Positions 1-34,538 of a stretch of 46,126 nt of DNA are shown here, in pieces (the stretch's first letter is position 1; every line of letters begins with the position of its first letter). The notes under the pieces are model-generated. The model was not told the DNA's origin and did not search any database. It saw nothing but the letters and a program-made list of their open reading frames with translations. The DNA is from an uncultured Planctomycetales bacterium (GTDB lineage Bacteria > Omnitrophota > Gorgyraeia > Gygaellales > Profunditerraquicolaceae). Location of the stretch: the NCBI GenBank assembly GCA_964510625.1, contig CAZEBD010000001.1, forward strand, positions 1 through 46,126, given 5' to 3'. Position numbers and translations under genes: made by a program.

Positions 1-3000
1 ATATTCAACCATTGAGTAAAATATTGCTCGGCTTCCCAGTCGCCCAAGGTTTTAAGTTTACTAATTGCTTTTCCCATGCTTTTTTCATCATTTTGATTAG
101 CACACTTTAATATCCCCCTTAACTCTTTATATTTTTCTTGAGAAATCATCCTTCCCTGTGGACCAGAGTATAGCCAGTTTATCGCTGCCCGGAAGAATTC
201 TTTACCTTCCCCAGTTCCTAAAATGGTAGGCAGATGCTTACGCGCTTCTCTCATAGTCCTAACCTTGTGGTATCCCATAATACGCGACATATCCTCTTCT
301 ACCACTCTAAAGAGTAGATAAACAACTGCACGGAAAGAAACCCTGAAGTTTAGAAGCATTATTGGGATCGCGATAAATATCACTGCTAAAATGGGTAATG
401 AGGGGACGCAGAATATTAAGGCAACAGTCCAGGTAATAATATTCCATATTAACCATGCACCGATCGCCGCTTTCCAGAAACGTGAAGCTATTTTATTCTG
501 TGCCTTATCTGAATCTGTTAACTCCTTCTTAGCATTTTCATCCAGTTTAAAACGGAACAATGCTGTTAAGAAATACCGAAAAGGATAAATAAAGAACTGG
601 AATACAAAAGTAGATATAGGATAGGTATAATGTATAAGACCATCTTTTTTTCTCATTTCTTTTAGGGTATCTCTAATTTTATCTATTAAAAGCTCACAAA
701 GCATACGTTGTTCCTGAGTAAGAGTAGCATAATTCCAACTTACAGGAGGAACTAGCGCTTTGCTATCTATTAACTTCTGCAAATCCAATTCGACTATGGG
801 ATCTTTACCTGCTTTTGAGAAACGTTTGAATAGATCTTTAAATTCTCCGGTGCTAAAAATATAACCACCTTTAAACTTATAAAACCCTTTTGCTCTTAAT
901 AGGTCTAGAATGGAACCAATTCCGCTATGGTAACCAATAATGGACTTCCAAAACACTATTTGTTTGTCAATAAAATCTACATCAATTATGGCTAAGGTTA
1001 TTTGAAATGTTTTGTTTCCAAACCTATTATAATTAGCACGAATTGTATAAGTATTGCCGTGATTATTCGGATTGATTGTTCTAGAGTTTCTCTTTATCCA
1101 CTGATCCAAAGCCTTGGCCTGCTCGGCATCAAGATTGCCATCAGGTATTGCTACTACTCTTTCTCCCGCTGCAGGATTAATTCTTCCTGCTACCCTATCT
1201 TGCGCGTATTGTATAGTTTTCTCTTCTAAATAATCAATAAAAGGCGTAAGGAAATTGAAATCAGCAATATATTTCTCTAACCAGACTCTGTAGGCATTTT
1301 TCTTCTTAATTGCGCCAAGATTCGGCTGTATTCTATGGTCAACACCCTGAGCCAACCTTACTAACTTTTTATTAGTTATACCGAATAGTCTAGATAACCA
1401 AGACCCTGACCAGACACCCAGTCTTAATAATATAAAGATGAAAACAAGACCTACGGCTGTTGCTAATAGGATGGCGATTGAAGGTAGATAATTATGCCCT
1501 CTAGTTAAATTATGGCCAGTACTATTTTGAGGAATATGTTTCTGGAATTGAACTTTTAAATACTCTACGAAGCTATTCAAGGCACTGCCATTCTTATAAT
1601 CTTTCCAAAGCACAGGATTATATTTATCTGCTTTTTCGAAAATTGTTATACCGTATTTAAAGTAAGTTCCATCTCTTTGGGCCAACTTTTCCGCTTCGGC
1701 TTGCTCCATAGTTTGAATCCGCGGTGAATTTTTATCAATTTGAACGCCGTTAACAAAGTTAACTGCATCATAAGCTTCCCCGCTGTCATTTATATTTCTT
1801 GCAAAAATCCAATATTCGCCGGGTTTATCATTAAGAAATACTATATAATAATTATAAAGCGGACCTTTCGACGACTCGATTACACCATTCGTATCAGTAA
1901 CCTCGGATTTAAGAGGCAGCTCTTGACCATCAAAATACACCTTTACAGCAGGATTCCTGCTCCAAGTACCTTCATTAACTTGATAATACAATCTGCCGTC
2001 CATGCGAAGAGCAATCTGGGTTATTGATTCTCGGGCGGGATCTTCATACTTAGTATCATATACCCTGATCTTTTCACCATTACTATCTGTTTCAATACTA
2101 AAGTTATATACCCTACCGGTTATGCTGTTAGTATTATTATCAAATTCAAATGTATTCTCATATCCTCTCTTTTCATTAGACCAATTAATATTAATCACTG
2201 TATGATAATTATCCTTCATCATTACATAATCCTTAGTCGGGCTGCTGGGTAGATAATAATAGTATTCAATCTTGCCGCTTCTTCCGGTAGAGGCATCAGC
2301 ATAGGTGCGCTTTACTTCTCTGAAGTTCGTATTCAACAAGGTATTCTTATCAGCATCGGTCATACCGTTCTGTTCCAGCTGAGCTAAGATTTGCTGTCTG
2401 GCTTCCTCAGATGCAATCCCTGGGAAGGCTTTCCCACCTATAGTCTGATTCGTATAGGCCAGGAATTCCTCTCCATCAATAACGTTATACATAGAGGTGG
2501 CTACCGCTTCATCTCTGGTTTTAGACCATTGATCAACTTTTAAGCGGGTTTCAGGCACCCAGCGAACATTAATATCCACAGACTCGCCTTTTTCACCCTG
2601 CGGGGCTTTATATGGAGTGGCCAAGGTTTCAAAATGCCCATGCTCCTCATAAACAAAATCACCTAATACACGTACATCCGCATACTGCCAGCGATACCAT
2701 ACCTCCCCAGTATTGGGATCACGGTAACGCACACGGTAGTGCTGAATATCGGTATCAGCAGGCAGGCCATATTCCTTATCACCATTATCGGTATTAAGTA
2801 TTTCCAATACTTTCTGTCCACTGGCTTTATCCACAAAATATCCCGATAATGCCATTGGGCTTAATTCCATAAATCTGGAGGTAATAAATACCGTGCCTCT
2901 ATCAATAGCCAGGATTCTGCCGTAAGAATCGCCGGGGACAGAATATTCAATAAAGGTAGAATCACCTAATTTTGCATCAGTAGCCACCATTTCAAAGTCA

Positions 3001-6000
3001 TCGGGGACCAGCTTGTTAATCTCATCATCGGTCAGCTCATCAACCTCTGTTGGGGTTAAATTACCTATGGTCTGAGCGATTGCCCTCTTTAAATCCATCT
3101 TCTGCTCTGCGTTTAAATTAAGGTCTTGAGCAACAGTTTTAACCTCCACTCCAGCCACCAGGCCGTTCTCATCTAACTGTGCCTTCATCTGCTTAATTGC
3201 AACATAACCTTTATCTTCACCTTGCCATTTAAGAACATAGGCAACCTTCGGCTGATAAACATTCTGAGTATCAAAGCTGTCTACCAGGTAGATATCTTCG
3301 CCACTTAAAGAAACCTCAAGCCACGTTCTGCCAAAGTCATCTCCAGGTTCACGATACAGATAACCGGTCGGAACGCCATCGCGGGATAAGGTCTGGAATT
3401 TAGTTAAATTACTCTTCTCGAATTTCACATATTTATTTTCTGAGGCTGCCCAAGGATTGTAGAACTCAAACTCGGTCTTTAAATGAACCTGGCCGGCAAA
3501 ATCGGTAATTATACCGTAAGCCGGTAACAGATACGGAATATTCGGGACTTTTTTGAAGTAAGAGAAAACCCGCTGGTAATGATCAACCGCTGATTGCTCC
3601 TCGTTAACCGGTTCTGCCTCCTGACGGTACACATTAATATCGCCGCTTGCTGTAGCCGTATCGATCATAGCCTCAACTTTATTCGTAAAATTCTCGCCGT
3701 TAAAAGAACCACCCAGCCATTTCATATTCGGAGAGAACAGTTTATTTAGGGCATCTTCCTTATTCCAAATCGCCTGCATTGTACCAACTACTTCTTTAGG
3801 CTCACCTTTGACATTCCACCAGCCAAACCACTCCTCATTACCGAAATTGTCATAGGGGACTCCGAAATGAGTACCATAATTATCCTGAACCTTCGGGTCA
3901 GCTGTAGATTTCCACCACTCATCAAATGCCTCCATATAGGTTACGCCTAAAATGTCGGCATTCTTAGCAGCTTGCCAAATATTAGCGGCGGCCTTGGCTT
4001 GGCCAGCCTGATCTTCTTTCTGTAAATACTCATTCCAGGAATCAGCACCGCTTTCAGACAGATAGATTCCTTTGCCATTTGCTAGCTTTTTAGCTTCCAG
4101 TAAGATTTCCGTAGGATTATCCCATTGATAGATATTTAAACCCCAGATATCGGCTGAAGGCACATCCGATACCGCTGCGGAGAAATCCCCATCAATACTA
4201 CCGGTGCCGCTATAACCAAAGCTGCAGGAAACAGCATGATTTGGATCAATCTGCTTGATAAAACCGGCTGCTTTTTCCGCTTCTATATACCAATTATCAA
4301 TATTATTATCGAACCATTCCGGATGGTAATTATATTCGTTTCCTAATTCCCAGATAAAGGCGGCGGGATGATCCTTATACATTGCGACATAATTAAGGAA
4401 GGTACGACTCTTGATATCCTGGCCGGGATTATTACGGTCATCAAGATTCGGAATAACCTGAATTACCTTAATATGATGATTAGCCAAAGCATCCCATAAA
4501 TCGCCGGTCATCGTATTATAAACGCGGACTACATTAATACGGTTCTGCTCCATCTGATCAAGAAGCTCATTAGCAGCTTTAATCTTATCAGCCGAAGAAG
4601 CTTCTGTACCAGCTTTTAATTCGCCTAAAGACTCAAGACTTAAGAAAATATCTTGACGATCAGTCCAGGGAACACCGAAAGACAACGTAACACCATGAAA
4701 CTTATCAGAACTATTAGCTGACCAGGCTTGCTGATCAAAAGCCGTTTGCTCTAAAGCAGGGGTGTGAAAATAATACTCCATATCGATAGTCTTGGTTTCA
4801 ACATTTTCTTTCGGGAAAGTAAATTCAGGATATGTAAAATTAACTTTATCTTTAGTAATTGTCATGCGCGGATCGCCATGCACGCCATCATAAAGAAGAT
4901 AAATTACTTCTCCGGTGCCGGCCATAATCTTCTCATAAACGGAAAACTTAACAATCCCTTCATTACCTAAGTTAGCAATAAATTCATTGGTGGTATTATT
5001 AATATTATCGGTCCGCTGGGTCTTAGTATTCGAATTAGTTTCCGAATAGTAAAATTCAACGCCAAACTTAGACATAAAATTACGTAATTGGTATAAGAAT
5101 ACATCATCTACTCCGATATTAAGCGGATCCTTAATATATCTTGCTGAAGAAACCGGATACACATTACCTTCCAAATCCTTAATTTTGGTAGTCTTAAATT
5201 TCACCCTTAATTCTTCTTTGCCATTCACAACTACTACCCGGCTATATTCTTCATCAGTAATAATGGTATAACCGGTATATGCCTGGGCCTTTTCGGTATG
5301 CTTATAGTAGAAACCATAATCCGGAATAACATAGGCTCCATTCTCACCGAAATTCGGATCAAAAACAGCGACTTGGGAATATGTAAATGTTTCAATCCTG
5401 CTGGCAGATTTTTCTCCGCTCCATCTAATTTCAATCGGCCGCCAGAGTACCGGATACTGTTTCATGGTATTCCAAGGCTGCCACTGCCAGCCGTAAATCT
5501 GGGCTTGGGCGTTGATAGATTGATGTTTGGCGGTGATGTTCTGGGCCTTGGCGGTGATGTTCTGGGCCTTGGCGGTGATGTTCTGGGCCTTGGCGGTGAA
5601 TTCTAAGGCAGCAGCGATATACTTAATCTCGTTGGAGATAGCTTCTCTTAATTTTTTCACCTCCTCCTTAAATTGGTCCACGGTAGCTTGCTTGGCATCT
5701 AATGTATCTTGGGCTACAGAAAGATCGTAAGGAGTAACATGAGAATCCGGATTAAAATTGAATCCCCACTGTTTAACAAGCTCGTCATATTTTGCTTTAA
5801 GATCATTATAATTTTTCTCTAAGTTAACGATTAAATCCTTCTGGTCATTTATATCAGCCTGCGCTTTATCCATTACCTCTTTAGCGGCGGCAATCGCCGG
5901 ATCGGCAAGATTTGCGCTGGCTGTTTCGTATGCGGCCTTAGCATTATTATAATCAATCTCCTTCTGGTCGCGAATGATCTTGGCCGCATCTATTTCTACC

Positions 6001-9000
6001 ATCAAGTCTGAAACTACTCTATTAGCGTCATTTACCTGTTTCGACAGGTCAGCGGCATTCTGCTCGGCAATTGTCAATTCAGCTTGCGCATTATCCATGG
6101 CTTCTTTGGCAGCAGCCACAGCCGGATCAGTCAAATCGCCGCTGGTTACATCAAATGCGGCCTTAGAATCATTATAAGCAATCTGCTTCTGATCAAGGAC
6201 GGCCTTGGCTTCAACAAATTGCTGCGATAAATCTGATACCAATTTATTTGCATCTTCTAATTTTTTCTCTAAATCAGTAATATTCTGCTCGGCAGTTGTC
6301 AATTCAGCTTGCGCATTATCCATGGCTTCTTTGGCAGCAGCCACAGCCGGATCAGCGGTTACCAGCGTTTCATATGCGGCTTTGGCATCTTCATAGGCCT
6401 GCTCTAATTCGGATAACTTGCTCTTGGCTGCTTCTAACTCTGTCTGTTTAGTTTCCATATCATATTTAGCAGTAAGAGTATCGAATTCTGCCTTGGCCTG
6501 GGTAAACTCATTCAGCGCGGCAACAAGCTTGGCCTCAGCATCCTCCAGGGCCTTACGGCCTGCGGACTTGCCAGATAAATCAGGATCATTTGAATCCTTC
6601 CAATCCTTATTCAATTGAATCTCAACCTTTAATGCTTTATTACCTAAGCCATTATAGTTAGCCGGAATAATGTGTGTTGTGCCAAGATAATTTTCATTAA
6701 AGAGGTTCTGATTGGCGTTGCTCCAGGCGATAATAGCATTTTCATCAGCATCGGTGGTAGCTTCATAGACGATGAAGACATTTAATTTGCTATTTTGTAA
6801 ACCATTATAGTTGGCCGGAATGGTGAAGACAGTGCCGTTATTGGCATTTTCTTGAGTAAAGAGGTCTTGATTGACTTTACTCCAAGCAGCAATAGCATCT
6901 TCATCGGCTGTAGTGAGGTTCTCCTGAACAATGGTAACCTTTAATACGTTATTACCTAAACCGTTGTAATCGGCTTCGATAGTATAAACAATGCTGTTGT
7001 TGGCATTTTCTTGAGTAAAGAGGTCTTGATTGACTTTACTCCAAGCAGCAATAGCATCTTCATCGGCTGTAGTGAGGTTCTCCTGAACAATCATTACATC
7101 CAGCTTCTTATTGCCTAAGCCGTTATAATTTGCCTCGATGGTATAGACGGCGTTGTTGTTGGCATTTTCTTCGGTGAAGAGATCTTTATGGGCATCGCTC
7201 CAGGCGGCAATGGCGTTTTCATCGGCTGTAGTGAGGTTCTCCTGTACGATGGTTACCTTTAATTCATCATTGTTTAAACCGTTGTATTTCTCCGGAATGG
7301 TGTAAACGATATTAGTATTAGCGTTGGCTTCGGTGAAGAGATCTTGATTATCCTTGCTCCATGCCGCGACAGCAGCTTCATTCTCCGGGCTGAGATCCTC
7401 CTGGACAATCATTATATCCAACTTCTTATTTACTAAACCATTGTAATCGGCGTCGATGGTATAAACAGTACTGCTCTTGGCGTTGGCTTCGGTGAAGAGA
7501 TCTTTATGAACATCACTCCAGGCGGCAATGGCGTTTTCATCGGCTGTAGTGAGGTTCTCCTGGACGATGATTACTTTTAATTCTTTATTACTCAAACCAT
7601 TGTAATTTTCAGGAATGGTATAGACGATATTGGTATTGGCATTCTTTTCGGTGAAAAGATCTTTATTAACCTTGCTCCAGGCTTTGATCGCATCTTCATC
7701 GGCCTGAGTAAGACCCTCTTTCACGATCATAACATTCAGCTTTTCATTACCAAGATTACTGTAGTTAGCAGGAATGGTGTAAACTACATTAAGATTTCCG
7801 CTAGTGAATAAGGCAGGATGATCTTCACCCCAAGCGGTAATGGCAGCTTGAGCGGCAGCCTTATCTTCTGAATTTGTCCACCAGTCATATATACCCCAAA
7901 CCCAATCTCCCTTATTTCCGGATACGCGCTGGCCAACAGTGCCTTGGTATGAAGGCAACGCGCTATAATCCGGATCCTTTTGCTGTTTCTCCACAGGCAA
8001 CGGAACTTCTTTAACCAAATCTTCCCTTGTTACATAAATCGGCACATTTTTATCATAGGTGACAACTCCAGTTTCGATAACCTTACCATTCTCATCATAA
8101 TTAAGGATGGTTCCGGTTAATCCATCTGCGCTATACTTATATTCTTGGCGGATTCTCCCCTGCCCATCTTTTATGAATGAATAACGGCCCTGATTATCAT
8201 AAGAAACCTGCGGATTATCAATATTTAAACCGCCATAGCCGATATCATCGGTGTCGCTCTCTATAATATCCTGAATTTTGGAGAATTCGCCTGTACCCTG
8301 CTGCGTCTCAGTAATAGCAGCTGTTAAAGCTGTAGAATTACCCGCAAAACTATTAAGAGTAGTTGCGAATACGGAACTAGCAATAATGAATGCAAAAACT
8401 AGATTAACAACACCCCTCTTTGTAAGAATATTCTTGAAGGTGCCGCTTAACTCGTCGATTAAGCCATAACCGATGAATTTGATGGTAAATGATAAATTAG
8501 ACAAACGGGATTTAACAGCAGCTTTTAAAGTCGCTGCAGCTGCCCCTGCATTTTTATTTTTAAACGCTTGGGCCTGAGCGACAATAGCTTTTCTTTCAGT
8601 GGCCTGGGCCTCATGCAGCTGAACCTGATTGCGGACAGCCTCATCTTCAATTTCCACGCTGTAGCTGATCTGGCCATCTTTGCGGGAAGCGATAGGATAG
8701 AATAAAGCGCGGATATTTCTGATTACCGGAGGAGCCCTAATACCGTTGGTACGCTCTATATGATTTAAAGCAATTCTATAGGTAGCCAGGCCCATTCTAA
8801 CGAAATCCTTAGCCACTGACGGATAGCGCAGAGCACCCACAAACTGGCCAACCGGGCGCCAATTGTGCCCACGGCTACTGCGGCTTCTTGCATAAGAGAT
8901 ATTGGCGATAACAAAGATGGCTAAAGAACCTAATCCAGCGGCGACAAAATCTAACCAGTCAAAAGTACCATGAATCCAACCTAACCCTTGCGCTAATTCC

Positions 9001-18000: not shown

Positions 18001-21000
18001 ATAAATAGTTTTGCTTCTGCATCGGTTTTCAGACCTAACGCAGTCTTTATTTTCTCAACAGCCAAATCATGCGCTTTCTGGTTAAGACGATATTCTCCTT
18101 TATCACGATATACATATGCCCCTGGACCTTTTGCTTCTTCAATCTTATTAGTTACCTTTATTTCTATTCCCTCAGAAGATTGCTCACGGGCTACCCCGGA
18201 ATTCTGCATTATAGGATCCAACGCCTCTTGCACCTTAGCGGTATTTGCGATTACTGCTTCATCAACTATCTTCTGAGTATCAGCAGTGATATAAGTAACC
18301 TTGCTTGAGAAAGGCAGGTGGAACTCATCAAATCTTACTGTATTCTGCCTCATTAATGCTTCTCGCAAGGAAGCGTCTTTAGTCAAACTTAAGAATCCCA
18401 AAGTAGTTTGATCAAGTATAGTAATCTTACTGGGATTAATCAAAGTATCTATCAACTTTGCAGTACTTCTATTCCCTTCGTTATAATAAGAAGATCCATT
18501 GATTAATTCATAGCCAAAAAGACTTGCCAATTCTTTAAAATCTATGGCACCCTTCCCACCAATTGTCATCTGCGCTTCGCCTGGCTTAACAACCCAAAGT
18601 TGATTCAATCGCACACCAGCAGTTCTTTCGCTAAGTACGCCTCTTATTATGAGCTCGGCCAGGAAACCCAATGTCTTACCTCCAGATGTCTTCTGAGCGA
18701 CGCTATTTTCTTTAAGTAAACCGGCAATCATTCCTAATTGTTCATTCGATCTACCTAAGTCAATTTTACCTTTGGTATCCTTCTTAACTTGTTCAAAAAT
18801 AACTCTGGCAACCAAACCGAATATTTTATCTATTTTTTCTGTCTTGCCAATACCGCTTTTGGTTATTTCTTCTAATTTTCTCTGGATAGAATCTTTATTA
18901 AGATCCACTCTGGCATTAAAACCTTCGGCAATATATTGATCAGACCTGTCTTTTGCCATAAATACTAAATCTTTTCCGTTCTCAGCAAGGATTATTCTTC
19001 CTCCCTCAAGCCTATCGGATAAATTTTCAAAACTCTTATCGATTGCCCGAAGAACAGGAGCAACTGCCAGCTCAGGGTATAACGCCGTAGCTACTTGGCT
19101 GCCTAATTTCATCTTACTAAATAATCCTGTTTTTAGATTAGTTTGCCCATTCAATTCTCTCAGGCTGCTTGTTTCTAATGTCTTTATTTGTGCGTCAATG
19201 CTTCTTAATTTCTTCTCAATGCTACGGAGCACCCGTTCCCGGAGTATCTTATCTCTTCCAGGATCGTCAGACAATTTCGCTTTGTTCATAAAATAATCCC
19301 TGCTATCTAATAATCTGCTTTTAGTTTGAGCAGCTGCATCTATTTCTTCTCTAGTTTCTTTCAATATATTCGTTAATCTTTCGATATCAGGTGTAGAAAC
19401 TTTATCTAAGCCCCTTCTAAACGCATCAAGCAAATAAAGCTTTACATTGTCTTTGACTATCTTTTCATTAACCAAACCATTCTTAATATCCTTTTCAAGT
19501 AATTTACTCGCGCTTCTTAATACACCATCCTCTAATTTTATATCTGCAGATTTAACTAATGCTTCCAATAAATCGGGCTTAACTAATTCAAGATTTAATC
19601 TCTGCAATGATTCATACATTGCTCTGCCCAACGAAGATACACTTGCTAAAGATGACCCATTCAAATAAGCATTCTCATAAACTAACTGCTTATTCAAGAA
19701 ATCGGCCTCTATTTTAGTCAATCCCTCTCGTTCGACCTGCCCCTTAAGAGCACTAATACGCTCTATCCGATTGGCGTAATCCCTTTTCAACTCTGCTCCA
19801 ATCCTTTTATTCAAACTACTAATCTTTACCAATCCTTCTTCATATTGCCCTTGGGTTCTAAATAATTCTAATCTTTCTTGGGCTGCTCGTAGTCTAAGAG
19901 AATCGTTTAAAGTCACCCTTAACATAGTTTCTTGTCCAGAAGGCAAAACAATTGTGATATTTCTTTCTTTGCTTTCTAAACTTCTGCTGTTTATCATTGT
20001 TTCTGCTTGGGCCTTATCTGCAATATGCACTCCTTGGCCTATCTGATCGGTTAATACTCGAGTAATTTCGGAGGCGACTTGTTTATCACCTTTTGTCAAA
20101 GCATTACTTATACTCCCGAATTCTTTAACTACAGAGGACAATTTTTCATAGTTTTTAAATGCTTCAAAAGAAGTAAATTTGCCTCTATCATTAGTAAATC
20201 CTTTAGTTAATAACTGGAGATCCTTGTCAGGAGTGAAATTTGACATTCTTAAGAAAGGAATCCATTTGGCAACTTCTTTTATACCAGTGGACATATACCC
20301 TTGTCGGCTATATTGCCCCGGGGCGATCTCATCATATATAGGAGTAGCTTTGGTAGCTTTTAATAATTGGTCATCAATTATATCTATAACGGTATCAATA
20401 CCGGTAACTATACCAGGCATAGTTATTAAGTTTGAATCTGCCCACTGCATCCCCTCTATGACTTTATTGAGTACTTTTGCCGTTTTTGGATAGGCGCTTG
20501 CTAATCTTGAGAATTTGGGTGAACCATTTGCACCCTCTAAAACACTCTGTCTAAACTTAGCAGAAGCGTTTGAAACTGCATCTTTAAAGGTAATTTTCGC
20601 ATCTCCTGCTTCGACTTTAGTAGCTAATTTTTCACCTATTCTTAATTCCTTTATAACACTGGCCGGGCGTCTGAATAAAGTATTTATGAATTTTTCCCCT
20701 ACCCCCCCTACTGTACCCAAATTAGCAGTTGACGTCCGAACCTGGGCTACCTCTATCATCGGCTTCATCCATAAACCAGAACGAGGCCCTTCAATCCCAC
20801 TGATAAGAATATCTTTGGGGGTAACAGAGTTAAGCACTAATTTCATCTCTCCGTTTTCCTTTACATAATAACCTTTTGTAAGAAACCAGGAATTTAAACC
20901 CGAGCTATTTACCAGTTTCTGCGATTCTGCTGACAATCCACTGCCATAATAACCGGCCTTAGCCTTAACTCCTTCCCAGAATCCCTGACCAACAGTGAAA

Positions 21001-24000
21001 GCCGGAGAAACCAACATCCAGTCAAGCGCTCCGGCTAAAGCTCGGTTATAAAGAAGCTCGGCACCGCTTAGTGAATTTCCAAATTTATTAAATTTAACTG
21101 TTTTAAAAAGTGCCGTAGCCTGCTCTGATCCACCTACGCTATACTCACTAAGATTTTTAGCAAGATTTGCTTTACCTAAATATAATGCCGTCATACCGCC
21201 TAAAGCAAAACTACCTGCAGAATCTAAACCAAACTTTGTATAGCTAAAGCCATCTGCCTTATTCCAATAAGCTCCGTCTTGGCCGCGCAAATAATTAATG
21301 CCGGTTTTCAGTAAATCTACTCCCGGAAGTGCCGCAAATGTAACCCCACCACCATAACTAAATTTAGCTAACCCCCAACCGACTTTACTAAGATTACTCA
21401 ATCCTCCGGTACTCTTACTTAATATTCCCGAAGCATAACCACCATGCAGCCCTAACCCAATAATTCCTCCTCTGGCATAATTAGTCCAATCGCTATAATT
21501 AGCTCCGAACTTGCTTAGATCACCCTCTAAAATGGTTTTAGCTCCAGGAAAAACTACCGCACCACCCAAAGTAGAAAGACCAAGCTTAGCCCAAGATGAA
21601 GTAAGCCAGGATGAAGTGGCAACGCGGGATAAACTAGAAGCAACTGCCCCAGCACCACCAAAAATACCACCAGCCATTGCACCATAAACTAAACCTTTAT
21701 TATAAACTCCCCAAATCGAACTCGGTGTTAATTGCTGGCCAGATTTGAATCCTTTAACAGCATCGCTTACTAAGCCTGTAGCAAGGTATACTTCACCACC
21801 TAAGGCCGCCTGAGATATAACCGCACGGCTTAAATTTGAAAAACCTGCCGCCTCCCCCCACCTCGCAAAATTAGATGCAGAACCAGAAAGAAATCCGGTA
21901 GCGAATAACGTAATATTAGAATTGACATTTGTCAGCGGCTTACCATTCATCGCAAAACTTGTGGCTTGCCCCAATGCTACGTTGCCCAGGCCAAGAGTAA
22001 CACCTCTTTTTAAAGCTTGTGTAAAAGCCTGTCTCGCTGCCGCTGCTTCAGCTAACGCAGCAGTTGAACCTGAAGCTGCTGCAGTTGCGCCTCCCCGAAT
22101 AGCCTGCCCAATAACTGATCCACCTAATTTTAAGAATGAACCTGCGGCTCCAGCAAAATACATATCAAGGCCGCTGAGCGCGATATCACGAGCTAAATCC
22201 CAACCACCGTAACCGACAGGCAATGAAGAATAAGCTTCCGCAACCAAATGGTAAGGATCTGCTCCCCCTTTCATATCCTTTTCTAGAGTACGAGCATATG
22301 CATACTGCATCACATGCACCATCGGCATATTTTCTAACATAGGCAATGGAGTGGAATTTAAATCTTCCGCATATTCTTCTGCTGTTCTAAAGCTTGATTC
22401 AACCTTTGGAACCAAAACGGTATTATACTTATCCAATCTCGTATTAAAATCGCCCTGGATTACCTGAATCGCTTCTCCGTATTTTGTTATAATATTATTC
22501 TCTGGTTGAGTAAGAAAAGAAAAAATGTCGGTTGCAGTTTTGCCATTACTAAGCCCAAGTCCTTCACCTGCTTTCATCGATCTTGAAAGATCCCAATCAC
22601 TGCCAATGCTATCTATCCATCTGCGTTCTACATCCAACATAAACCCTGTCGCCGCAGCTTCTTTAGCTAAACTGTTATAATCATCCATGGCCCGTTGAGC
22701 CTTGCCCTTAGTCTCATACATTCTATCCATACTAAAAGTCCTGCTGAACCAATCCTTAGTTTTTTCCCACCTGCTTTGTTCATGGGAGCGTATTTCTGAA
22801 ACTCCGTCCCAAGCCGGTAATTGGTTAGCAGCAGATGTATTGGCTTTTAACTTCGCATCTAGTTCTTTCGCCTGAATATTAGCCTGGAGAAGATCGTTAG
22901 CATCGTTTATTTTGTCCTTATATAAAGATTGAAAACCTGCATAATAATTCAAAGAGTCGACTAGCTCTTTCTTTGTATAGCGGTCGTTTATCGCAGCAGA
23001 ACCGATTTGAAATTCTGGATGGATCTGATTTGTCCAAGAATTATTCTTATATGCGTAATCCATAAAATAGAGATGCTGGAAACTGTTCTCTCCAAACCCA
23101 TTACCAGTTCGATAGGTTTCAACGAAATCCCCTTGTTGCGACCCGATTAAAGACACATAAGAGTTACCTACGTAACTACTCCCTTTATCTAACCAAGCCA
23201 ACCCATTACTAACACCTTGGCTATAACCACTCTGATAAGCGTTAAATACATATTTATTTAAGTTCATATTATATTCTAAAAATCTTTGACCTTGAGTATT
23301 AGTCATAGAAAACAATTTAAGCTCGGTCTTACCATTAGCCAAAGGATTGCCCGCAGAATCTAAAACAGGCAACTGTTGATATGAAGCATTACCATATTTA
23401 GGTAACACTTGAGTCATCAAATCCTGGATCCTGATATTTTCTTTTCCTGCCCGAATATTGATTGACTTAATGCCGCTACTCGGATTACCTGCTTTATTAA
23501 AAACAACCTCTCTATATCTGTCATAACCAGTGGTATTGAAATTATCAGCGACTACTTGACGATGCGAGAACAGATAAGTTTTGTTGACGCCACCAATCAT
23601 CCCGCCATAGCCGGCAAGGACTTTATCCTGACTGAATACCCAATCTCTACCGACTACATAATCTTTACCCGGCGCAGCGTTCGAAGGACGATAAAGATTT
23701 TCGTAAAAACGATTATGCGCTTGATTAAAGGCTCCTTGTATAGGAGATAGCAGATCTGCTTCCCATCCGGTAAAAGGCTTCCAACCTGCCGCGGGGGCGT
23801 TACTAGCGCCATTGCCGTACGTAGACGTCGAATCCAAAGCTATAGGATCCCCAAAAAATATACCTGCCTTGGCTTCAGTTATATTGCCGCGTAATTGCAT
23901 AAAACGCGTGTAATTCACCTGCATAGTAAGATTATCAATTTTAGTTTCTAAATGTATCGGGGCCGTACCATCAAAACCAGCTAATGACCAAGTCCGGCCT

Positions 24001-27085: not shown

Positions 27086-27455
27086 ATGCCCAGATCCAGC
27101 AGAATAATTGAAGGAAAATCCGCTATTCATGTCATGTGCCGGGGTAATAATAAGCTGCCTATGCGGCCATCTCTGGCAAGGCAGATATAAGAGCGTTGTG
27201 ATTAAATCTAACAGCCAAATCTTACAATGCGGAAAATACATAGAACTTAACCCGGTTCGGGCCGGTATAGTCACAGATCCCGCTCAATATCAATTTAACA
27301 GCTATAGATATTACGCTTTGAGCCATCAAGATTCACTGATTACCCCAAGCCCGGTGTACGAGAATATGGGGATAGGGCCTTTAAAAGCCAGGCAGGCTTA
27401 TATTAGTTTTGTTATAGACAAGGAAATTGGGGGTTTGATACAGAAATCCCGGTAG
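27086..27455 (+). pseudogene. Degenerate REP-associated tyrosine transposase (RAYT / IS200-like Y1 transposase) with an internal deletion and a frameshift
   Basis: A strong SD (TAGGAGGTGTATTATG) is followed by MPRSSRIIEGKSAIHVMCRGNNK..., the RAYT N-terminal HV..RGN motif, which stops at 27188-27190. The +1 frame (track ORF 27108..27455) carries GHLWQGRYKS....YIELNPVRAGIV. The roughly 70-80 aa that normally hold the HUH motif are missing. Confidence 0.7.
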
Positions 27456-27467: not shown

Positions 27468-27505
27468 GGGAAACGTCCCCTTTTGAGGGAAACGTCCCCT
27501 TTTTA
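27468..27505 (-). repeat. REP doublet in inverted orientation; right inverted repeat of the RAYT unit, overlapping the tadC stop codon
   Basis: GGGAAACGTCCCCTTTTGAGGGAAACGTCCCCTTTTT is a perfect 38-bp reverse complement of 26795-26832. Confidence 0.9.
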
Positions 27506-28360
27506 TTTGAAGCCGCCAAGGCCGCCCTGGAGGAAGGTAAGCAGAATTGGGCCGCCTACGATGATGCCGATAACCGGCATAATGCAGAAAATCAGAGGAA
27601 TAAGGATCTTAATCGGTGCCTGTAAAGCAATTCTTTCACCGCGGTGGAATCTTTGGGCGCGGGCATCTTCGGAAAGAATGGTAAAAGCCTCGGTAACCGG
27701 CGTACCCATACGCTCAGCCTGGATAATTGTCTGGGCAAATGAGGTCATTTCAGGTATCTCCAGGCGATGCGCCATATCCTTTAAGGCCTGGATGCGCGGC
27801 TTACCCCATTTTATCTCTTCAGCCACAAAAGCCAACTCCTCAGTCATCGGGGTATGCGGAGTACGCTCAATCACCCATTTTACGGAATTAACAAAATCCA
27901 GGCCGGCCTCGATACAAAGCCCCAGAAGATCAATGGTTTCCGGAAGGCGGCGAGCAATCAGATATTTACGCTTAGCAACCTTACGTTTAATATAGAAATC
28001 CGGCAGCATATAGCCTAAACCAACAGGAATTATTAATGTCAAAGGATCTATTTTCCCGCTGGCCGACACCACCAACACCGCTAAAAGGATGCATAGAATT
28101 ATCTTGAGATTAAAGAATGCTCCGGGTGAGATCTCCATCCGCGCCGCTTCCAGGGTCTTTTTTAAGCTGGCAGCCAGGCCGGTCTTCTGTAAAAGCGGCC
28201 CAGTAGGAAAGATGTTCATAAAATCAAACCCCGGCTTCTGGAATTTGATCTCCGAGCCATCCTGGGCCCTGCGCGGCAGGGTACTGGGCGGAGAATAAAT
28301 CAAACTCCACACCACCAGGCCGATCGCCCCCAGAATCGAAAGTAAGATGACGATAACCAT
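27503..28360 (-). CDS. tadC: Tad pilus inner-membrane platform protein, TadC-like (T2SS-F domain)
   Basis: Track ORF of 285 aa with TM helices flanking a cytoplasmic T2SSF-type domain (LPETIDLLGLCIEAGLDFVNSV...). It lies directly downstream of the TadB-like gene with a 1-nt gap. Confidence 0.75.
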   Translation of the reverse strand: MVIVILLSILGAIGLVVWSLIYSPPSTLPRRAQDGSEIKFQKPGFDFMNIFPTGPLLQKTGLAASLKKTLEAARMEISPGAFFNLKIILCILLAVLVVSASGKIDPLTLIIPVGLGYMLPDFYIKRKVAKRKYLIARRLPETIDLLGLCIEAGLDFVNSVKWVIERTPHTPMTEELAFVAEEIKWGKPRIQALKDMAHRLEIPEMTSFAQTIIQAERMGTPVTEAFTILSEDARAQRFHRGERIALQAPIKILIPLIFCIMPVIGIIVGGPILLTFLQGGLGGFK

Positions 28361-28361
28361 A

Positions 28362-29207
28362 TTAGATTTTGATTGTGCTAAAAATCTTGATCAGGATCAT
28401 CCCCACTACCTGCAGGACTACCGCGGCAATTAAAAGCATCCTGCCCATGTTGGTCTGCAGCATGATATCGAAATGATTTTTATTCACCGAGACCACCCAG
28501 CCCACAAAAGCAATCGGCAAAAAGGACATGATCATACCCTGCATTCTTCCCTGCAGGGTAAGGGTTTTAATATTTTCCCTTAATTTACGGTTATCCCTGA
28601 TGGTTACCGTCAGGCGGCTGAAGACCTTGGGCAGCTCTCCTCCGGTTTCCCTGGCCACCAGCAGGGCATTGACCACCAAACCCAGCTCCTCCAGATTCAT
28701 CCTTTTATTCAGGCGTTTAAGGCACTCCTCTAAAGGAATACCCATACGGTTCTCTCTGACCACCAAGCCTAACTCCTGGCTGATCGGGGCAGGCATCTCC
28801 TCGACGAGAACTTCCAGCCCCTGCAAAAGGCTTAAGCCCCCTTTAATACAGCTGGAAAGCATATTAATCGCATCTAAGAGCTGCTCGTTAAACTTGCGGA
28901 TCCTGATTTTATACCGGGTTTTTAAGATGAAATTCGGGATGGAGACGCCGATAAGCACCCCTAAAATCAAAAAAAGGTTTGATTTTAAGATAACCAACCC
29001 CCAAAAGCCGAAGATTAAAGGCAGGATGAAATAAAGCATGACAATGCCTTTTGGGCTCTTGTCATAAAACATCTTATCCATTTCCTTGCCAAACTCTTCC
29101 TCCTTTTTCTGCTGCCAGAATTGCATCTTCTGCACAATCGGCGGAAGGAGGCTCAAAGAAATTAAAATTACCGCGCACAGGATTAAAAGATTAAGCAAAA
29201 TAAGCAT
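28362..29207 (-). CDS. tadB: Tad pilus inner-membrane platform protein, TadB-like (T2SS-F domain)
   Basis: Track ORF of 281 aa with an N-terminal TM, LLDAINMLSSCIKGGLSLLQGLEVL, and C-terminal TM helices. It is a paralogue of the adjacent gene. Confidence 0.75.
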   Translation of the reverse strand: MLILLNLLILCAVILISLSLLPPIVQKMQFWQQKKEEEFGKEMDKMFYDKSPKGIVMLYFILPLIFGFWGLVILKSNLFLILGVLIGVSIPNFILKTRYKIRIRKFNEQLLDAINMLSSCIKGGLSLLQGLEVLVEEMPAPISQELGLVVRENRMGIPLEECLKRLNKRMNLEELGLVVNALLVARETGGELPKVFSRLTVTIRDNRKLRENIKTLTLQGRMQGMIMSFLPIAFVGWVVSVNKNHFDIMLQTNMGRMLLIAAVVLQVVGMILIKIFSTIKI

Positions 29208-29224
29208 AATATCCCAATTTTTAT

Positions 29225-29389
29225 TTAGCCGGCCTGCTCGCCGCCGCCGATGACATCGATAGACTGCCGGAATTTACCTTGCAGGCTGCGCTTGTAATAT
29301 GCTCCCGCCAGGATTAATACTGCAGTGACCACCGCCAATACCAGCAGATATTCCATCACCGACTGCGCTTTAAAATTTAGTTTTTCCAT
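29225..29389 (-). CDS. flp: Flp-family prepilin (54 aa; below the ORF-track size cutoff)
   Basis: Hand translation gives MEKLNFKAQSVMEYLLVLAVVTAVLILAGAYYKRSLQGKFRQSIDVIGGGEQAG*. It has the A/QSVMEY class-III signal motif and an upstream AAAGAGGA. Confidence 0.8.
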   Translation of the reverse strand: MEKLNFKAQSVMEYLLVLAVVTAVLILAGAYYKRSLQGKFRQSIDVIGGGEQAG

Positions 29390-29525
29390 ATCCGTTATTT
29401 TATCCTCTTTGGGTTAAGATAGTCACTAAAACCAAACATAATCTCACAATAGCAGATTTATGAAAAAAAGCTACTTTTTTTATTGTGTGTTGTTTTGGAA
29501 AGTGTGCGGATTGGAAAATAAGATG

Positions 29526-31355
29526 TTAGCCGGTGCTGGTTATCTCAGGATAATACTCATCTTTAAATTGCCCGATAGCCGCTCCGCCGATACCTACCTG
29601 ATCGAAAGTGGCAGTGCTGTTACTTGTGCTTGACACGGTTCCTGCGGTTTTGGAAGTTACCGTACATTTGACCTCCCAGGCTCCGTCTAAAGTTACAGAA
29701 TCAATATAATGAATCATTAAGCCCGGATAAAGATCGTTTACGCCTTTATAATCCTGTACTTCCTTAGCATTTTTAAAAGATTCCGCACCCCCGGCCGATT
29801 GCCAGACATTATTCCAGATATCATTATTCCATTTTATGAATACCGGTATAGTTGCCTCATTTCCAAGCGAGGCAAAGCTAATTTTGTTTAACCAAACACG
29901 GATTTTTTCTTCATTAGCCTTTAAATCAGCCAACGTGACTGCAAGGGCAGCGTAAGCCTCCGTACAATCATAACCATCTTCGCAAGCCTCGGCATAATAT
30001 TTGGAGTCTTCATAGACAGATTTATTCGATGTGAATAAAGAATCGGCGGTAAGGCCTTCAAAAAACTCCGGCTTAAATGATTCTGTACCCGCTGGAAGTT
30101 TTCCGGTTGCGATAATGGATAAAAGGTCGGCAACATCGCGCAGCGCGTATGATAAACCTACAAAATAATCACCTAACGCGATGCCATCTTTACCCTTCTC
30201 GCCGTTGATCCGTTCATCAACACCGGGTGTAGCCGGATCATCTTTAGCATCGGGATGATAGTAGCGATCACTAGTCATGTCTTGCGGTAAATCATCGTAG
30301 TCGCAAAACAAAGCAGCGGCTTCACGATTGAAAGGATCACCCAGAAAAACAGCAGGCGGAATAGAATATATTATGGGTAGCCCAATATCAAGAGGAACAG
30401 CGTGAAGCATATGTTTTTGCGGAAAGTTCCATTTAGTATGGAACAATTGATAAGTTTGAATCTTAGGTAGCTCACATTTCACCGAAAGTGAACCACCCTC
30501 GTAATCATAAGTAGCCTCTTCCTTAGTCGGGGTTACTCCGGTTACCGGATCCTTTGTCCCTTCAAAAATAGAGCCTGTACCTATCTGGAAATTCAAATCA
30601 TCTCCGCCGCCTCCGGGAATCAGACATGTACCATTATTAAATCCGTAAGTTTGCCCGGTTTCTCTAGCTTGTTTAAAAGCCCCACCCTCACCGCCCTCAT
30701 TCCCTTTCCCGTCTTTATCCCCACTGCCGCCTTGCATAAAACTATCTGCGTTACCGAAATTCTCCATCTGAACGCTTCTGAAATAATCAGTAAATTCGTG
30801 CATAAAATAGAGATAAACAGAAAAAGCCCCCAACTGCTTAGAAGCTTCGTATAAAGCTGCGGCAGCTTGTTTATTAAGATCAGCGGCGGTCAACTCCTTT
30901 GCCCATATTGTACAATCCGGCTCTTTAACCATTTGTTCCATCGCCTGTTTCATTAATTTTTCCGCTTTGTGGCAATAATTAATTGCATTTTCTGCATATT
31001 TGCCTTTAACCGAAGCATTATAAAGAACTTCATACTTTTTACGCATCTCCTCAAAATAATCTTTCAGCTCTTTATAGTAAGTGTCAGTATTCTCCTTATT
31101 CATATACTGCACCGTATTGCCGGGAGTAGGAGGAGGGGTTTTATCCTTGTTCCGAAACACCAATTGATTAAAAGCACCTGCTTCATAAGAAGCAGCAGCC
31201 AGCGCCGCGGCATCGGCGGCATTAGACGCACAACTCTTGGCTACTTTGGCTTTCCCGGTTGCTTTAGTTACCGCTATAAGCGCCAGCAACCCGGCTATGC
31301 AAACCAGCAGAACCGGGAAAATTTGCCCGTTACAGCTGTTTTTATTCTTAAACAC
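29526..31355 (-). CDS. tadG: TadG-like large pseudopilin / putative pilus-tip protein (609 aa)
   Basis: The N-terminus reads NGQIFPVLLVCIAGLLALIAV, followed by the SNAADAAALAAAS motif typical of TadG-like proteins. The C-terminal part is large and unassigned. Confidence 0.55.
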   Translation of the reverse strand: MFKNKNSCNGQIFPVLLVCIAGLLALIAVTKATGKAKVAKSCASNAADAAALAAASYEAGAFNQLVFRNKDKTPPPTPGNTVQYMNKENTDTYYKELKDYFEEMRKKYEVLYNASVKGKYAENAINYCHKAEKLMKQAMEQMVKEPDCTIWAKELTAADLNKQAAAALYEASKQLGAFSVYLYFMHEFTDYFRSVQMENFGNADSFMQGGSGDKDGKGNEGGEGGAFKQARETGQTYGFNNGTCLIPGGGGDDLNFQIGTGSIFEGTKDPVTGVTPTKEEATYDYEGGSLSVKCELPKIQTYQLFHTKWNFPQKHMLHAVPLDIGLPIIYSIPPAVFLGDPFNREAAALFCDYDDLPQDMTSDRYYHPDAKDDPATPGVDERINGEKGKDGIALGDYFVGLSYALRDVADLLSIIATGKLPAGTESFKPEFFEGLTADSLFTSNKSVYEDSKYYAEACEDGYDCTEAYAALAVTLADLKANEEKIRVWLNKISFASLGNEATIPVFIKWNNDIWNNVWQSAGGAESFKNAKEVQDYKGVNDLYPGLMIHYIDSVTLDGAWEVKCTVTSKTAGTVSSTSNSTATFDQVGIGGAAIGQFKDEYYPEITSTG

Positions 31356-31380
31356 AATTCCCTCCTACTATCTTGCCAAA

Positions 31381-31578
31381 TTAACTATTTAAAGGTACCT
31401 CTGGCACACCTGGCGAAGCTTTCTTGCCTGCCTGTGTCCGGGTACCTTCAAAGGCACCTTCCCGCTGCGACAGGTGGGCTAATGACCAACTCCATAAGGA
31501 TACCATCGTTGACATTAAAATTATGGCGATAGCAAAAACCACTGTGTATTCTATTATCGATTGCCCTTTTTTCACCAT
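31381..31578 (-). CDS. Flp/TadE-type prepilin-like protein (65 aa)
   Basis: MVKKGQSIIEYTVVFAIAIILM carries the G/QSIIEY motif plus a hydrophobic helix. Confidence 0.7.
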   Translation of the reverse strand: MVKKGQSIIEYTVVFAIAIILMSTMVSLWSWSLAHLSQREGAFEGTRTQAGKKASPGVPEVPLNS

Positions 31579-31587
31579 TTCCTACCT

Positions 31588-32193: not shown

Positions 32194-32229
32194 TTCTCGC
32201 CTCTTGATTTATGACTACCGGCTCAAAAA

Positions 32230-32532
32230 CTAATCGGTAGTTACAACCGGACCGGGATCAGAGGAGGAACTTTCAGTTCCCACATAAGTCCTCACTCCAC
32301 CCTTGGCCTCTGTGGCTGTAATCGATGAATCCGAACCCGATTTAGTCCATTCCGGGCCCGGGTCTCCGGCGGATTGCGTGCTGGATAGTACACTATCCGT
32401 TACATCTTTGATCTTCCCCTGTATGCCTCGCTTAACATAAACCTGCATCCCCATAAATACCAGGCCCACTACGCCGATAATCAGCGCTAACTCCATTAAA
32501 TTCTGCCCTCTCTGAAAAAACTCTTTTCTCAT
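32230..32532 (-). CDS. TadE/Flp-type prepilin-like protein (100 aa)
   Basis: FQRGQNLMELALIIGVVGLVFMGMQVYVKRGIQGK. The 4-nt ATGA overlap with the upstream gene suggests translational coupling. Confidence 0.65.
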   Translation of the reverse strand: MRKEFFQRGQNLMELALIIGVVGLVFMGMQVYVKRGIQGKIKDVTDSVLSSTQSAGDPGPEWTKSGSDSSITATEAKGGVRTYVGTESSSSDPGPVVTTD

Positions 32533-33143: not shown

Positions 33144-33155
33144 TATATTAAACCT

Positions 33156-33449: not shown

Positions 33450-33480
33450 ATCCTCCTCCTAATCTTTAATTTCCGCTTTT

Positions 33481-33801: not shown

Positions 33802-33849
33802 TTTCCTACCTCCTTAAAATTGAACTTGACCAGCTTTTTATCTTAGCTG

Positions 33850-34155: not shown

Positions 34156-34176
34156 GCCCCACCTCCTAAAAATAAA

Positions 34177-34527: not shown

Positions 34528-34538
34528 TGGCAGCCTCC

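Follow-up and report, generated by a model that had tools for sequence, protein, structure and literature searches.

A GH158-related clan GH-A glycosidase module, probably catalytically competent, within an Archaeovorin-type giant protein of Omnitrophota

Omnitrophota encode giant proteins of 10,000 to >80,000 aa that rank among the largest known, and nearly all of what is said about their biochemistry is inferred. The window analysed here, a stretch of 46,126 nucleotides, carries a giant gene of this phylum, and three short motifs in its product, RINVVRVYNT, FIWELGNEYNY and GIYLSESGADSW, had led to the original prediction of a clan GH-A glycosidase in a distal, probably extracytoplasmic part of the protein. 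This raises the question of whether such a protein contains a working enzyme, to which family it would belong and on what it might act. When the minus strand is translated, a single frame stays free of stops for 8,797 aa and continues past the start of both window and contig (Table 1). The protein exceeds the 7,000 aa taken as the lower bound for such giants, and it carries an N-terminal C39 peptidase (Pfam Peptidase_C39, aa 174-253, E=8.5e-6) and multiple transmembrane (TM) segments (19 partly overlapping hydrophobic segments, ~16 of them distinct, in a 19-residue hydropathy scan); these features, together with its origin in Omnitrophota, to which named relatives and the giant frames of phylum-mates point, are those of the Archaeovorin type. 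A search for an internal SecA-like or DEAD motor domain gave a sub-threshold Pfam match to Helicase_C (E=0.075). The 20 kb upstream of the giant ORF hold a Tad pilus operon. The predicted distal position of the module cannot be affirmed, as the ORF is cut by the contig end and a gene of the same genus has a frame of >18,052 aa around the module; synteny offered no way to extend it, since that same-genus genome contains no match to the final 400 aa of the ORF.

All three motifs sit in the translated minus frame exactly where they had been placed, with E7353 and E7447 94 residues apart, and the module that we delimited (~320 residues) nearly coincides with the 3760-4700 originally proposed. An AlphaFold2 (AF2) model built on a 34-sequence alignment (pLDDT 72.5, pTM 0.74, with core blocks at pLDDT 78-96) is a TIM barrel of alternating strands and helices from β2 to β8; the alignment-based run alone is informative, a single-sequence AlphaFold model (pLDDT 39.8) being useless. 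E7353 (E154 of the model) lies three residues after β4 (strand 146-151) and E7447 (E248 of the model) at the end of β7 (strand 243-249), in agreement with the expectation that the two Glu residues would be found at the ends of these strands. The eighth strand was assigned to query residues 285-287 (aa 7484-7486), just upstream of the DEWWK block. The first ~57 modelled residues, which include β1, have pLDDT <50, although β1 is conserved in the alignment of embedded copies, after which the window copy carries a 17-aa insertion. A β-rich region that follows the barrel was modelled with low confidence and matches no PDB or Pfam entry. Comparison of the model to the PDB with Foldseek returned 645 fold matches at E<=1e-3, of which the top 50 are GH-A barrels. 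The best of these are GH158(Pro) (9e-13), BuGH158, LaGH157 (TMq 0.60) and GH2 glucuronidases, all of which belong to clan GH-A.

Table 1 Features of the giant ORF and its glycosidase module (window coordinates)
Feature	Position	Strand	Basis or remark
Giant ORF, >8,797 aa	3..26393	-	3' end cut by contig end; N-terminal C39-like peptidase, numerous TM helices
TM helix, aa 5994-6010 (in to out), last of nine	8364..8414	-	Lys/Arg: 3 upstream, 0 downstream
Predicted extracytoplasmic loop, aa 6011-8305 (2,295 aa), containing the GH module	1479..8363	-	Hydropathy and charge
53-aa tandem repeats (about 5-8 copies), same loop, N-terminal to the GH module	6839..7784	-	Tandem Repeats Finder
Clan GH-A (β/α)8 GH module, aa 7229-7545	3759..4709	-	Alignment with embedded Omnitrophota copies; AF2 model
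RINVVRVYNT, aa 7285-7294, strand β2, with conserved R7290 and Y7292	4512..4541	-	Translation; AF2 model
FIWELGNEYNY, aa 7346-7356	4326-4358	-	Translation
N7352-E7353, predicted acid/base Glu and preceding Asn, WELGNEYNYHPEWF block	4335..4340	-	E7353 codon 4335-4337
F7392-G-Y7394, after β5	4215..4223	-	Replaces His-Gly-(Glu/Asp) of stand-alone relatives
N7420-I-Y7422, conserved Asn-x-Tyr on β6	4128..4136	-	Model strand 217-221; alignment
GIYLSESGADSW, aa 7442-7453	4035-4070	-	Translation
E7447, predicted nucleophile, LSESGAD block	4053..4055	-	End of β7; homolog alignment
DEWWK block, aa 7491-7495, following β8	3909..3923	-	Alignment; AF2 model
TM helix, aa 8306-8322 (out to in), closing the loop	1428..1478	-	Hydropathy 3.03; Lys/Arg enriched downstream

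Sequence searches place the module in a large family. A phmmer search of 1.84 billion representatives gave 953 matches at E<=1e-3, 58 of them at E<=1e-30. A copy in the same genus scores E=4.7e-80, and a reading of the motifs as chance occurrences was rejected, with homolog E-values reaching 1e-80. Pfam, searched with the whole 8,797-aa protein and with the isolated domain, and NCBIfam, searched with the isolated domain, gave no glycosidase match, so that recognition of the module required homolog profiles; neither library contains a GH158 model. A rule that takes the lack of an HMM hit as refutation would therefore mislead here. In a PDB sequence search, the single module sequence matched GH158 at 4e-6, while a profile of 12 Omnitrophota copies reached 6e-18 with GH158(Pro) and 8e-13 with BuGH158, the best GH2 entry scoring 2e-9; by both routes, similarity to characterised GH158 is better than to other families. 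The Glu residues of the profile’s GNE and sEaG blocks align with residues 115 and 198 of the 6pal chain, which a constant offset of +22 converts to E137 and E220. N7352 and E7353 thus align with N136 and E137 of BuGH158 and E7447 with E220, and alanine mutants of E137 and E220 are inactive, which upholds the assignment of E7353 as acid/base and E7447 as nucleophile. The latter also aligns with the Glu of the GH2 ‘ITEIGA’ (TEIG) motif, and profile matches to the GH2 barrel span strands 1-8 with both catalytic Glu residues. Clan GH-A membership is accordingly supported as predicted, by the barrel model, its fold neighbours and the aligned Glu pair, with GH158 as the nearest characterised family, followed by GH157 and the GH2 barrel.

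The families offered as examples in the original prediction, GH5, GH17 and GH72, are not the nearest ones and were rejected as such, since PF00150, PF00332 and PF03198 gave no match to the module even at E<=10. GH5 mannanases appear as weak PDB matches (4e-4 to 4e-3), and matches to GH72 and GH5 were seen only for relatives or for a paralog of the module in the same genome. True membership of GH2 was likewise rejected: neither the domain nor the whole protein matches PF02836, and no N-terminal GH2 domains are present, Glyco_hydro_2_N and Glyco_hydro_2 having no Pfam match anywhere in the 8,797 aa. The paralog, on contig 8, does pass the PF02836 threshold, and the stand-alone relatives of the module pass the Pfam GH2_C threshold, whereas the window domain does not. 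These relatives are ~335-aa lipoproteins or T9SS proteins in Bacteroidota, Kiritimatiellota and Balneolota, named at NCBI ‘glycoside hydrolase family 2 TIM barrel-domain containing protein’, and a literature search found no biochemically characterised example. By its sequence, the module falls into a large, uncharacterised lineage, and among characterised enzymes the GH158 endo-β-1,3-glucanases stand nearest to that lineage. Known carbohydrate-binding modules found no support, with PDB sequence searches of aa 6014-7224 and 7546-8304 returning noise.

Conservation was assessed in a family alignment of 97 copies, 31 embedded and 66 stand-alone. N7352, E7353, N7420, Y7422, E7447 and D7451 are invariant in both sets (31/31 and 66/66) at an overall identity of 31-47%, and among embedded copies R7290 is kept in 30 of 31 and Y7292 in all. 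By analogy with other GH-A enzymes, we infer that the Tyr of the Asn-x-Tyr motif supports the nucleophile. The DEWWK block retains a nearly invariant Asp and Lys, with Trp variable in embedded copies. At the site of F7392-G-Y7394, every stand-alone copy has His (66/66) and Glu or Asp (66/66), while embedded copies have His in 16/31 and Glu in 17/31, and the replacement in the window copy is a candidate specificity change. W225 and Y315, invariant in the stand-alone enzymes, also vary among embedded copies. In the tree, the window copy sits on a long terminal branch (1.62). Given these altered and variable residues and the long branch, specificity, and even efficiency, may differ from those of laminarinases.

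The module lies in a region whose topology could be read from hydropathy and charge. Nine helices (5490-5994) precede it, with Lys/Arg counts upstream/downstream of 3/0, 0/6, 5/0, 0/5, 5/0, 0/3, 3/0, 0/4 and 3/0; this perfectly alternating bias places aa 6011-8305 outside. No 17-residue window within that stretch reaches a Kyte-Doolittle value of 1.0, and the two helices that flank it carry their Lys/Arg on the sides away from the loop. The module is thus predicted to face away from the cytoplasm in a loop of ~2,300 residues, and the extracytoplasmic placement foreseen for it gains support from this consistent positive-inside pattern. Adhesin-like repeats and a coiled coil had been described ahead of the module; Tandem Repeats Finder indeed detects a repeat of period 159 nt in 5.4 copies, the 53-aa tandem repeats of Table 1, and an Ala/Glu/Lys-rich helical region follows them in the translation.

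Recurrence in the phylum was surveyed in a sample of 301 genomes, of which 21 hold strong matches to the module, in frames of 6,795 to 59,091 aa. Every Omnitrophota copy forms part of a giant ORF; as many as three occur in a single ORF of 59,091 aa, and a genome of the phylum assembled in one contig of 2.0 Mb (G149) has one in a frame of 39,687 aa. The named relatives retrieved by a contig search with the alignment query are Omnitrophota MAGs. Glycosyl hydrolase domains have been reported in Omnitrophota giant proteins and a cell-wall-degrading role has been proposed for them (10.1101/2023.11.21.568195).

With fold, homology, conserved catalytic residues and recurrence in giant ORFs in hand, we consider it probable that the module is a complete and competent retaining clan GH-A glycanase related to GH158, built into an Archaeovorin-type giant and held outside the cytoplasm. 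Its catalytic activity is predicted from the sequence and would proceed by Koshland double displacement on a β-linked glycan outside the cytoplasmic membrane, with E7353, preceded by N7352, acting as acid/base after strand 4 and E7447 as nucleophile after strand 7, while the giant protein would hold the enzyme module in place. The target could be a glucan or glycan with β-1,3 linkages that belongs to the envelope or matrix of a host or a prey cell, or that occurs around the cell itself. A β-1,3-glycan substrate is a speculative assignment, to which we give somewhat less than even weight, by analogy with the gene neighbourhoods of relatives with 35-45% identity in other phyla: four of the five stand-alone Bacteroidota/Balneolota homologs examined adjoin GH17, GH30, GH81 and MFS genes, a laminarin-cluster pattern (PMC13188888; 10.64898/2026.01.10.698779). 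The original prediction went further in suggesting an attack on the polysaccharide or wall of another cell. This is a hypothesis, and such a role is speculative and in our estimate doubtful; the loop, if periplasmic, may never reach another cell.

The same enzyme might instead act on the cell’s own glycans, as a periplasmic or surface trimming enzyme or a transglycosylase for its own exopolysaccharide or envelope glucan, working with the giant protein and the Tad pilus in the manner of PslG, BcsZ and the GH17/GH72 transglycosylases. A periplasmic location is the simplest for a loop between inner-membrane helices, the fold matches include PslG (5bx9, E=2.6e-10) and retaining GH-A enzymes can transglycosylate, as is reported for the GH17 enzyme MlGH17B (PMC11005184). 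We nonetheless regard this as unlikely: genes for glycosyltransferases or polysaccharide export are not seen in the 20 kb upstream, which the pilus operon occupies, the characterised enzymes closest to the module are endo-glucanases that degrade their substrates, and the variation of subsite residues from species to species is better suited to a range of external targets than to one conserved self-polymer. Nutrient acquisition, in which the module would cleave environmental or imported β-glucan oligosaccharides as food and take no part in attack on cells, appears more improbable. It draws on the GH17/GH30/GH81/MFS clusters of the stand-alone homologs and on the listing of GH158 with the enzymes that marine bacteria encode in laminarin PULs (10.64898/2026.01.10.698779; PMC10108472), but in the tree a branch with support 99/96 divides the embedded copies from every stand-alone one, no sugar transporter adjoins the giant ORF, and it leaves unexplained why a food enzyme should be embedded in a protein of >8,800 aa. 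The 88%-complete source genome, moreover, yielded neither a GH3 nor a GH17 partner for downstream β-glucan catabolism, a result that favours use on own glycans over feeding and also counts against the main reading, with the GH17 search uninformative because its model matched in no control genome.

Inactive GH-like lectins have typically lost at least one catalytic carboxylate. A degenerate barrel that serves only to bind carbohydrate or as a structural module could be read from the long terminal branch, the loss of the His-Gly-Glu that is invariant in stand-alone enzymes and the insertion after β1, yet it is very improbable, as the residues of the catalytic centre (N-E, N-x-Y, E and D) are kept here and in every embedded copy despite the low overall identity.

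Returning to the competent glycanase, we tentatively envisage, as a long shot, that the module is a unit of a diversifying β-glycanase battery in Omnitrophota giants. The catalytic centre would be frozen and the subsites would vary by lineage, helping to set which host or prey envelopes a species opens, possibly including β-1,3-linked wall glycans such as archaeal pseudomurein. If true, this would be the first substrate-level, testable explanation of giant proteins in predation. The advance is incremental, because glycosidase domains in Omnitrophota giants have already been published. The link to a family found in β-1,3-glucan clusters nevertheless narrows the vague idea that giant proteins degrade cell walls, and a compact, apparently catalytically intact module missed by standard HMM libraries offers a small, testable handle on their function. 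The stand-alone relatives, for their part, make up an uncharacterised family of enzymes with a wide distribution across marine laminarin clusters.

Comparison to known systems shows which features are shared. The stand-alone relatives have 35-45% identity to the module across the barrel and the blocks WELGNEYNYHPEWF, SE.G.D, D.WWK and VPYD..NEE.WG in common with it, but they occur as free enzymes, carry a signal peptide or lipobox, are encoded in GH17/GH30/GH81 clusters and form their own well-supported tree group with invariant subsite residues. GH158 (BuGH158, PDB 6PAL; GH158(Pro), PDB 9ORO/9P25) provides the best profile and fold match to this clan GH-A barrel and, like the relatives of the window domain, occurs in laminarin-type gene clusters (PMC10108472), although identity is ~20% and GH158 is a lipoprotein whereas the window module is built into a membrane protein of >8,800 aa. 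GH158 structures also carry a C-terminal, eight-stranded Ig-like domain that packs on α7/α8 and shapes the cleft (PMC7157763), while the stand-alone relatives lack it and end 0-25 residues after the barrel. LaGH157 (PDB 9G5G/9FZ9) and the GH2 TIM barrel (PF02836; β-galacturonidase 6NCW) share the barrel fold at TMq <=0.60; unlike GH2 enzymes, the window domain has no N-terminal sugar-binding jelly-roll and Ig-like domains, and its Omnitrophota-profile E-values are ~9 orders of magnitude weaker for GH2 than for GH158.

Perhaps the closest parallel at the level of the whole protein is the Archaeovorin type itself, the 39,678-aa protein of Ca. Velamenicoccus archaeovorus (West-Roberts et al. 2023, bioRxiv 10.1101/2023.11.21.568195), with which the window gene shares a giant stop-free ORF, an N-terminal C39 peptidase, many TM helices, glycoside hydrolase content and adjoining pilus/secretion genes. 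The Archaeovorin papers refer to ‘glycosyl hydrolases’ generically and to a GH76-like fold, and name no GH2, glucanase or GH158-like module. They do not describe the GH158-related module, how it is conserved or its position as sister to the enzymes of laminarin clusters.

The glycoside hydrolase (GH) module lies within a giant protein encoded on the minus strand by a single stop-free frame of 8,797 aa, which runs from window position 26393 to 3 and leaves the window at its 3' end, where contig 1 of the 1.38 Mb, 185-contig, 88%-complete assembly begins. The original prediction had proposed a clan GH-A glycosidase on the basis of three motifs, all of which we found at their claimed positions in the translation, and the two putative catalytic Glu, E7353 and E7447, are 94 residues apart as it gave. 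The tandem repeats that it described upstream of the module are also present, as 5.4 copies of a 53-aa unit with a period of 159 nt. The coiled-coil region ends in AKAQNIT heptads, which are encoded by a perfect tandem repeat of 21 nt (window 5527-5599, 3.5 copies). The original description of the module as 'distal', on the other hand, is unjustified, because the frame breaks off where the contig does and because, in the same-genus genome G127, two separate contigs hold the ortholog of the window protein's N terminus (G127:C5:52498-53535, within an open frame of 4,102 aa on contig 5) and the GH module (G127:C6:43124-43951, within a frame of 18,052 aa on contig 6). These two matches may represent one assembly-broken gene. 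G127 has no match to the final 400 aa of the window frame, and the complete protein is probably more than twice its visible length.

A hydropathy scan of aa 6011-8305 found no segment above 1.0 on the Kyte-Doolittle scale. Nine helices precede this loop, starting at aa 5490, 5526, 5648, 5681, 5710, 5748, 5782, 5816 and 5994, with upstream/downstream Lys+Arg counts, in the same order, of 3/0, 0/6, 5/0, 0/5, 5/0, 0/3, 3/0, 0/4 and 3/0; the helix at aa 8306 carries its basic residues on the downstream side. By the positive-inside rule, this charge bias predicts that the 2,295-aa loop containing repeats, coiled coil and GH module is extracytoplasmic, in the periplasm or on the surface, which fits the placement originally suggested.

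Coordinates of the GH module, its motifs and modelled strands, and associated genes
Feature	Location	Strand	Remark
GH module	aa 7229-7545; window 3759-4709	-	aa numbering of the giant frame
RINVVRVYNT	aa 7285-7294	-	located in translation
FIWELGNEYNY	aa 7346-7356	-	located in translation
GIYLSESGADSW	aa 7442-7453	-	located in translation
Phe-Gly-Tyr replacing His-Gly-Glu	window 4215-4223; aa 7392-7394	-	97-copy alignment
Model strands b2, b3, b4, b5	89-92, 110-115, 146-151, 188-194		query numbering
Model strands b6, b7, b8	217-221, 243-249, 285-287		query numbering
Tad-type pilus operon	window 27503-43535	-	directly upstream of giant gene, same strand; read from translations only
Contig-8 paralog (second, more distant GH-A protein)	L002 1225-2178; upstream frame 3-1253		L002 = contig 8 of the window's own genome (G000), ~19148-22702
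~1,150-aa protein	L015 6336-9791		adjacent to stand-alone homolog
~1,150-aa protein	L016 3244-6708; L018 3261-6725		just upstream of GH17 gene preceding homolog

Pfam recognised only Peptidase_C39, at the N terminus, in the giant protein, and neither Pfam nor NCBIfam gave a match to the isolated GH domain. Homologs are nevertheless numerous: a 371-aa query compared by phmmer with 1.84 billion cluster representatives returned 953 matches at E<=1e-3 (58 at E<=1e-30), and a word-indexed search returned 573 proteins of 205-650 aa (E<=1e-5, 35-45% identity), most of which have precomputed Pfam GH2 TIM-barrel (PF02836) matches and which NCBI names 'glycoside hydrolase family 2 TIM barrel-domain containing protein'. 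The WELGNEYNYHPEWF, SE.G.D and D.WWK blocks are invariant or almost so in a 34-sequence alignment, and both proposed Glu fall in invariant columns. A single-sequence AlphaFold run reached a pLDDT of 39.8, and the fold was taken from an alignment-based run (pLDDT 72.5, pTM 0.74, core blocks 78-96), in which the N-terminal ~57 residues are poorly modelled. In this model strands and helices alternate as in a TIM barrel, with E7353 (E154 in query numbering, where 1 is aa 7200) three residues past b4 and E7447 (E248) ending b7, in agreement with the expected placement at strands 4 and 7; the modelled arrangement is that described for BuGH158 (PMC7157763). Strand b1 (KFHGVTLSF) is conserved in alignment with the Omnitrophota copies and is followed in the window copy by a 17-aa insertion.

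Foldseek searches of the PDB with the model gave 645 matches at E<=1e-3, the best including GH158(Pro) (9e-13), BuGH158 and LaGH157 (TMq up to 0.60), with many GH2 beta-glucuronidases, one GH5 mannanase and PslG among the other leading matches. A profile dominated by stand-alone copies (free genes) scores GH158(Pro) at 3e-13, similar to GH2 enzymes at 5e-12 and weaker; by a profile of 12 Omnitrophota copies only, GH158 clearly comes first (GH158(Pro) 6e-18 and BuGH158 8e-13, versus 2e-9 for the best GH2). When the profile is aligned with BuGH158, its GNE and sEaG Glu correspond to chain residues 115 and 198, which a constant offset of +22 converts to E137 and E220. Alanine mutants of BuGH158 N136, E137 and E220 are inactive (PMC7157763), and GH158(Pro), with the equivalent E143/E229, forms a covalent intermediate (PMC13195107). 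Owing to the profile scores and the alignment with these proven residues, we place the module in clan GH-A and take GH158 to be its closest characterised family; the original glycosidase assignment stands, its family being refined to GH158-related by profile and fold matches. The stand-alone relatives lack the Ig-like accessory domain of GH158.

All 97 copies aligned (31 embedded in giant frames, 66 stand-alone) retain N7352, E7353, N7420, Y7422, E7447 and D7451, at an overall identity to the window copy of only 31-47%, and this invariance argues for a working catalytic centre. The His-Gly-Glu after b5, W225, Y315 and the WW of DEWWK are invariant in stand-alone but variable in embedded copies, and the window copy has a long branch (1.62) in the tree. 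Such variation suggests that substrate subsites are diversifying, with lineage-specific changes in specificity, and it could also reflect relaxed constraint. Taken with the predicted topology, the module is probably an active, extracytoplasmic, GH158-related retaining glycanase of clan GH-A.

The module recurs in Omnitrophota giant proteins. Matches at E<=1e-10 occur in 104 of 301 sampled genomes of the phylum. The strong matches lie inside huge open frames, which reach 5,000 aa or more in 21 genomes of this sample. The same-genus frame (47% identity) has 18,052 aa, and others have 15,308, 15,934, 17,411, 24,217 and 35,009 aa or, larger still, 39,687, 42,913 and 45,379 aa. One 21,496-aa frame (genome G079) has two copies, and a 59,091-aa frame of a same-family genome has three within ~16 kb (G207:C2:89201-104881; locus L005 is the first). 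Weak matches (E ~1e-12) are mostly proteins of roughly 640-910 aa from dozens of genomes, apparent orthologs of the contig-8 paralog. Among GTDB species genomes, 'Candidatus Omnitrophota' and some Planctomycetales-labelled MAGs carry the module in frames open across the entire fetched locus, and Bacteroidota, Kiritimatiellota and Balneolota carry stand-alone genes of 335-430 aa. IQ-TREE supports the stand-alone group at 99/96 with the 28 embedded copies on the opposite side; L084, tagged 'embedded', is a Bacteroidota gene truncated by a contig end. This split indicates that the giant-protein module is a separate lineage and not a recent Bacteroidota gene capture.

For substrate clues we inspected the gene neighbourhoods of five stand-alone homologs. 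Three of these sit inside GH17/GH30/MFS-transporter clusters, another is flanked by a Y_Y_Y regulator-type protein on one side and a GH81 protein on the other, and the neighbours of the fifth are not informative. GH158 and GH157 enzymes are beta-1,3-glucanases, the order GH17-GH30-MFS-GH17 is that of the laminarin locus published for marine Flavobacteriia (PMC13188888), and CAZy-based studies count GH158 among laminarin-locus enzymes (10.64898/2026.01.10.698779; PMC10108472). Because the stand-alone homologs sit in laminarin-type clusters, a beta-1,3-glucan-type substrate is supported for the family by analogy, as guilt by association through relatives 35-45% identical, and a beta-1,3-glycan is our best guess for the module. 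Upstream of the homolog, three laminarin-type clusters of Bacteroidota/Balneolota encode an uncharacterised partner, a conserved protein of ~1,150 aa that has no Pfam match.

Laminarin feeding is mildly disfavoured in this organism, since no GH3 was found in its 88%-complete genome and the sole PF02836 match is the contig-8 paralog. This weaker relative of the module (31% identity, E=7e-12) exceeds Pfam thresholds for GH2_C, GH72 and GH5, and has a helical, TPR-like N-terminal half followed by the barrel, with a run of N interrupting the frame. In the 392-aa product of the next gene, a ~170-aa unit (GW.G.YWQNPANNWG) that resembles a carbohydrate-binding module occurs twice. Our best guesses for the role of the GH module are host-envelope attack, self-polysaccharide processing or feeding.

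The pilus operon beside the giant gene encodes, as read from translations only, TadB/C-like proteins, several Flp-like pilins, a CpaF-like ATPase, a secretin and a CpaB-like protein. Between the two lies a short ORF (window 27108-27455, plus strand; HLWQGRYKSVV...YIELNPVRAGIV), which we take to resemble REP-associated/IS200-like tyrosine transposases and which may be a mobile-element remnant.

The main value of the GH module is as an experimentally tractable part of a giant protein. It is not named in the published surveys of Archaeovorin, a giant Omnitrophota protein type (10.1101/2023.11.21.568195), which describe C39 peptidases, SecA-like domains, many TM helices and unspecified glycosyl hydrolases, with pilus/secretion genes and GH2-type genes flanking the giants, and which propose degradation of prey cell walls. 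The Archaeovorin giants thus described have features like those of the window protein and its locus.
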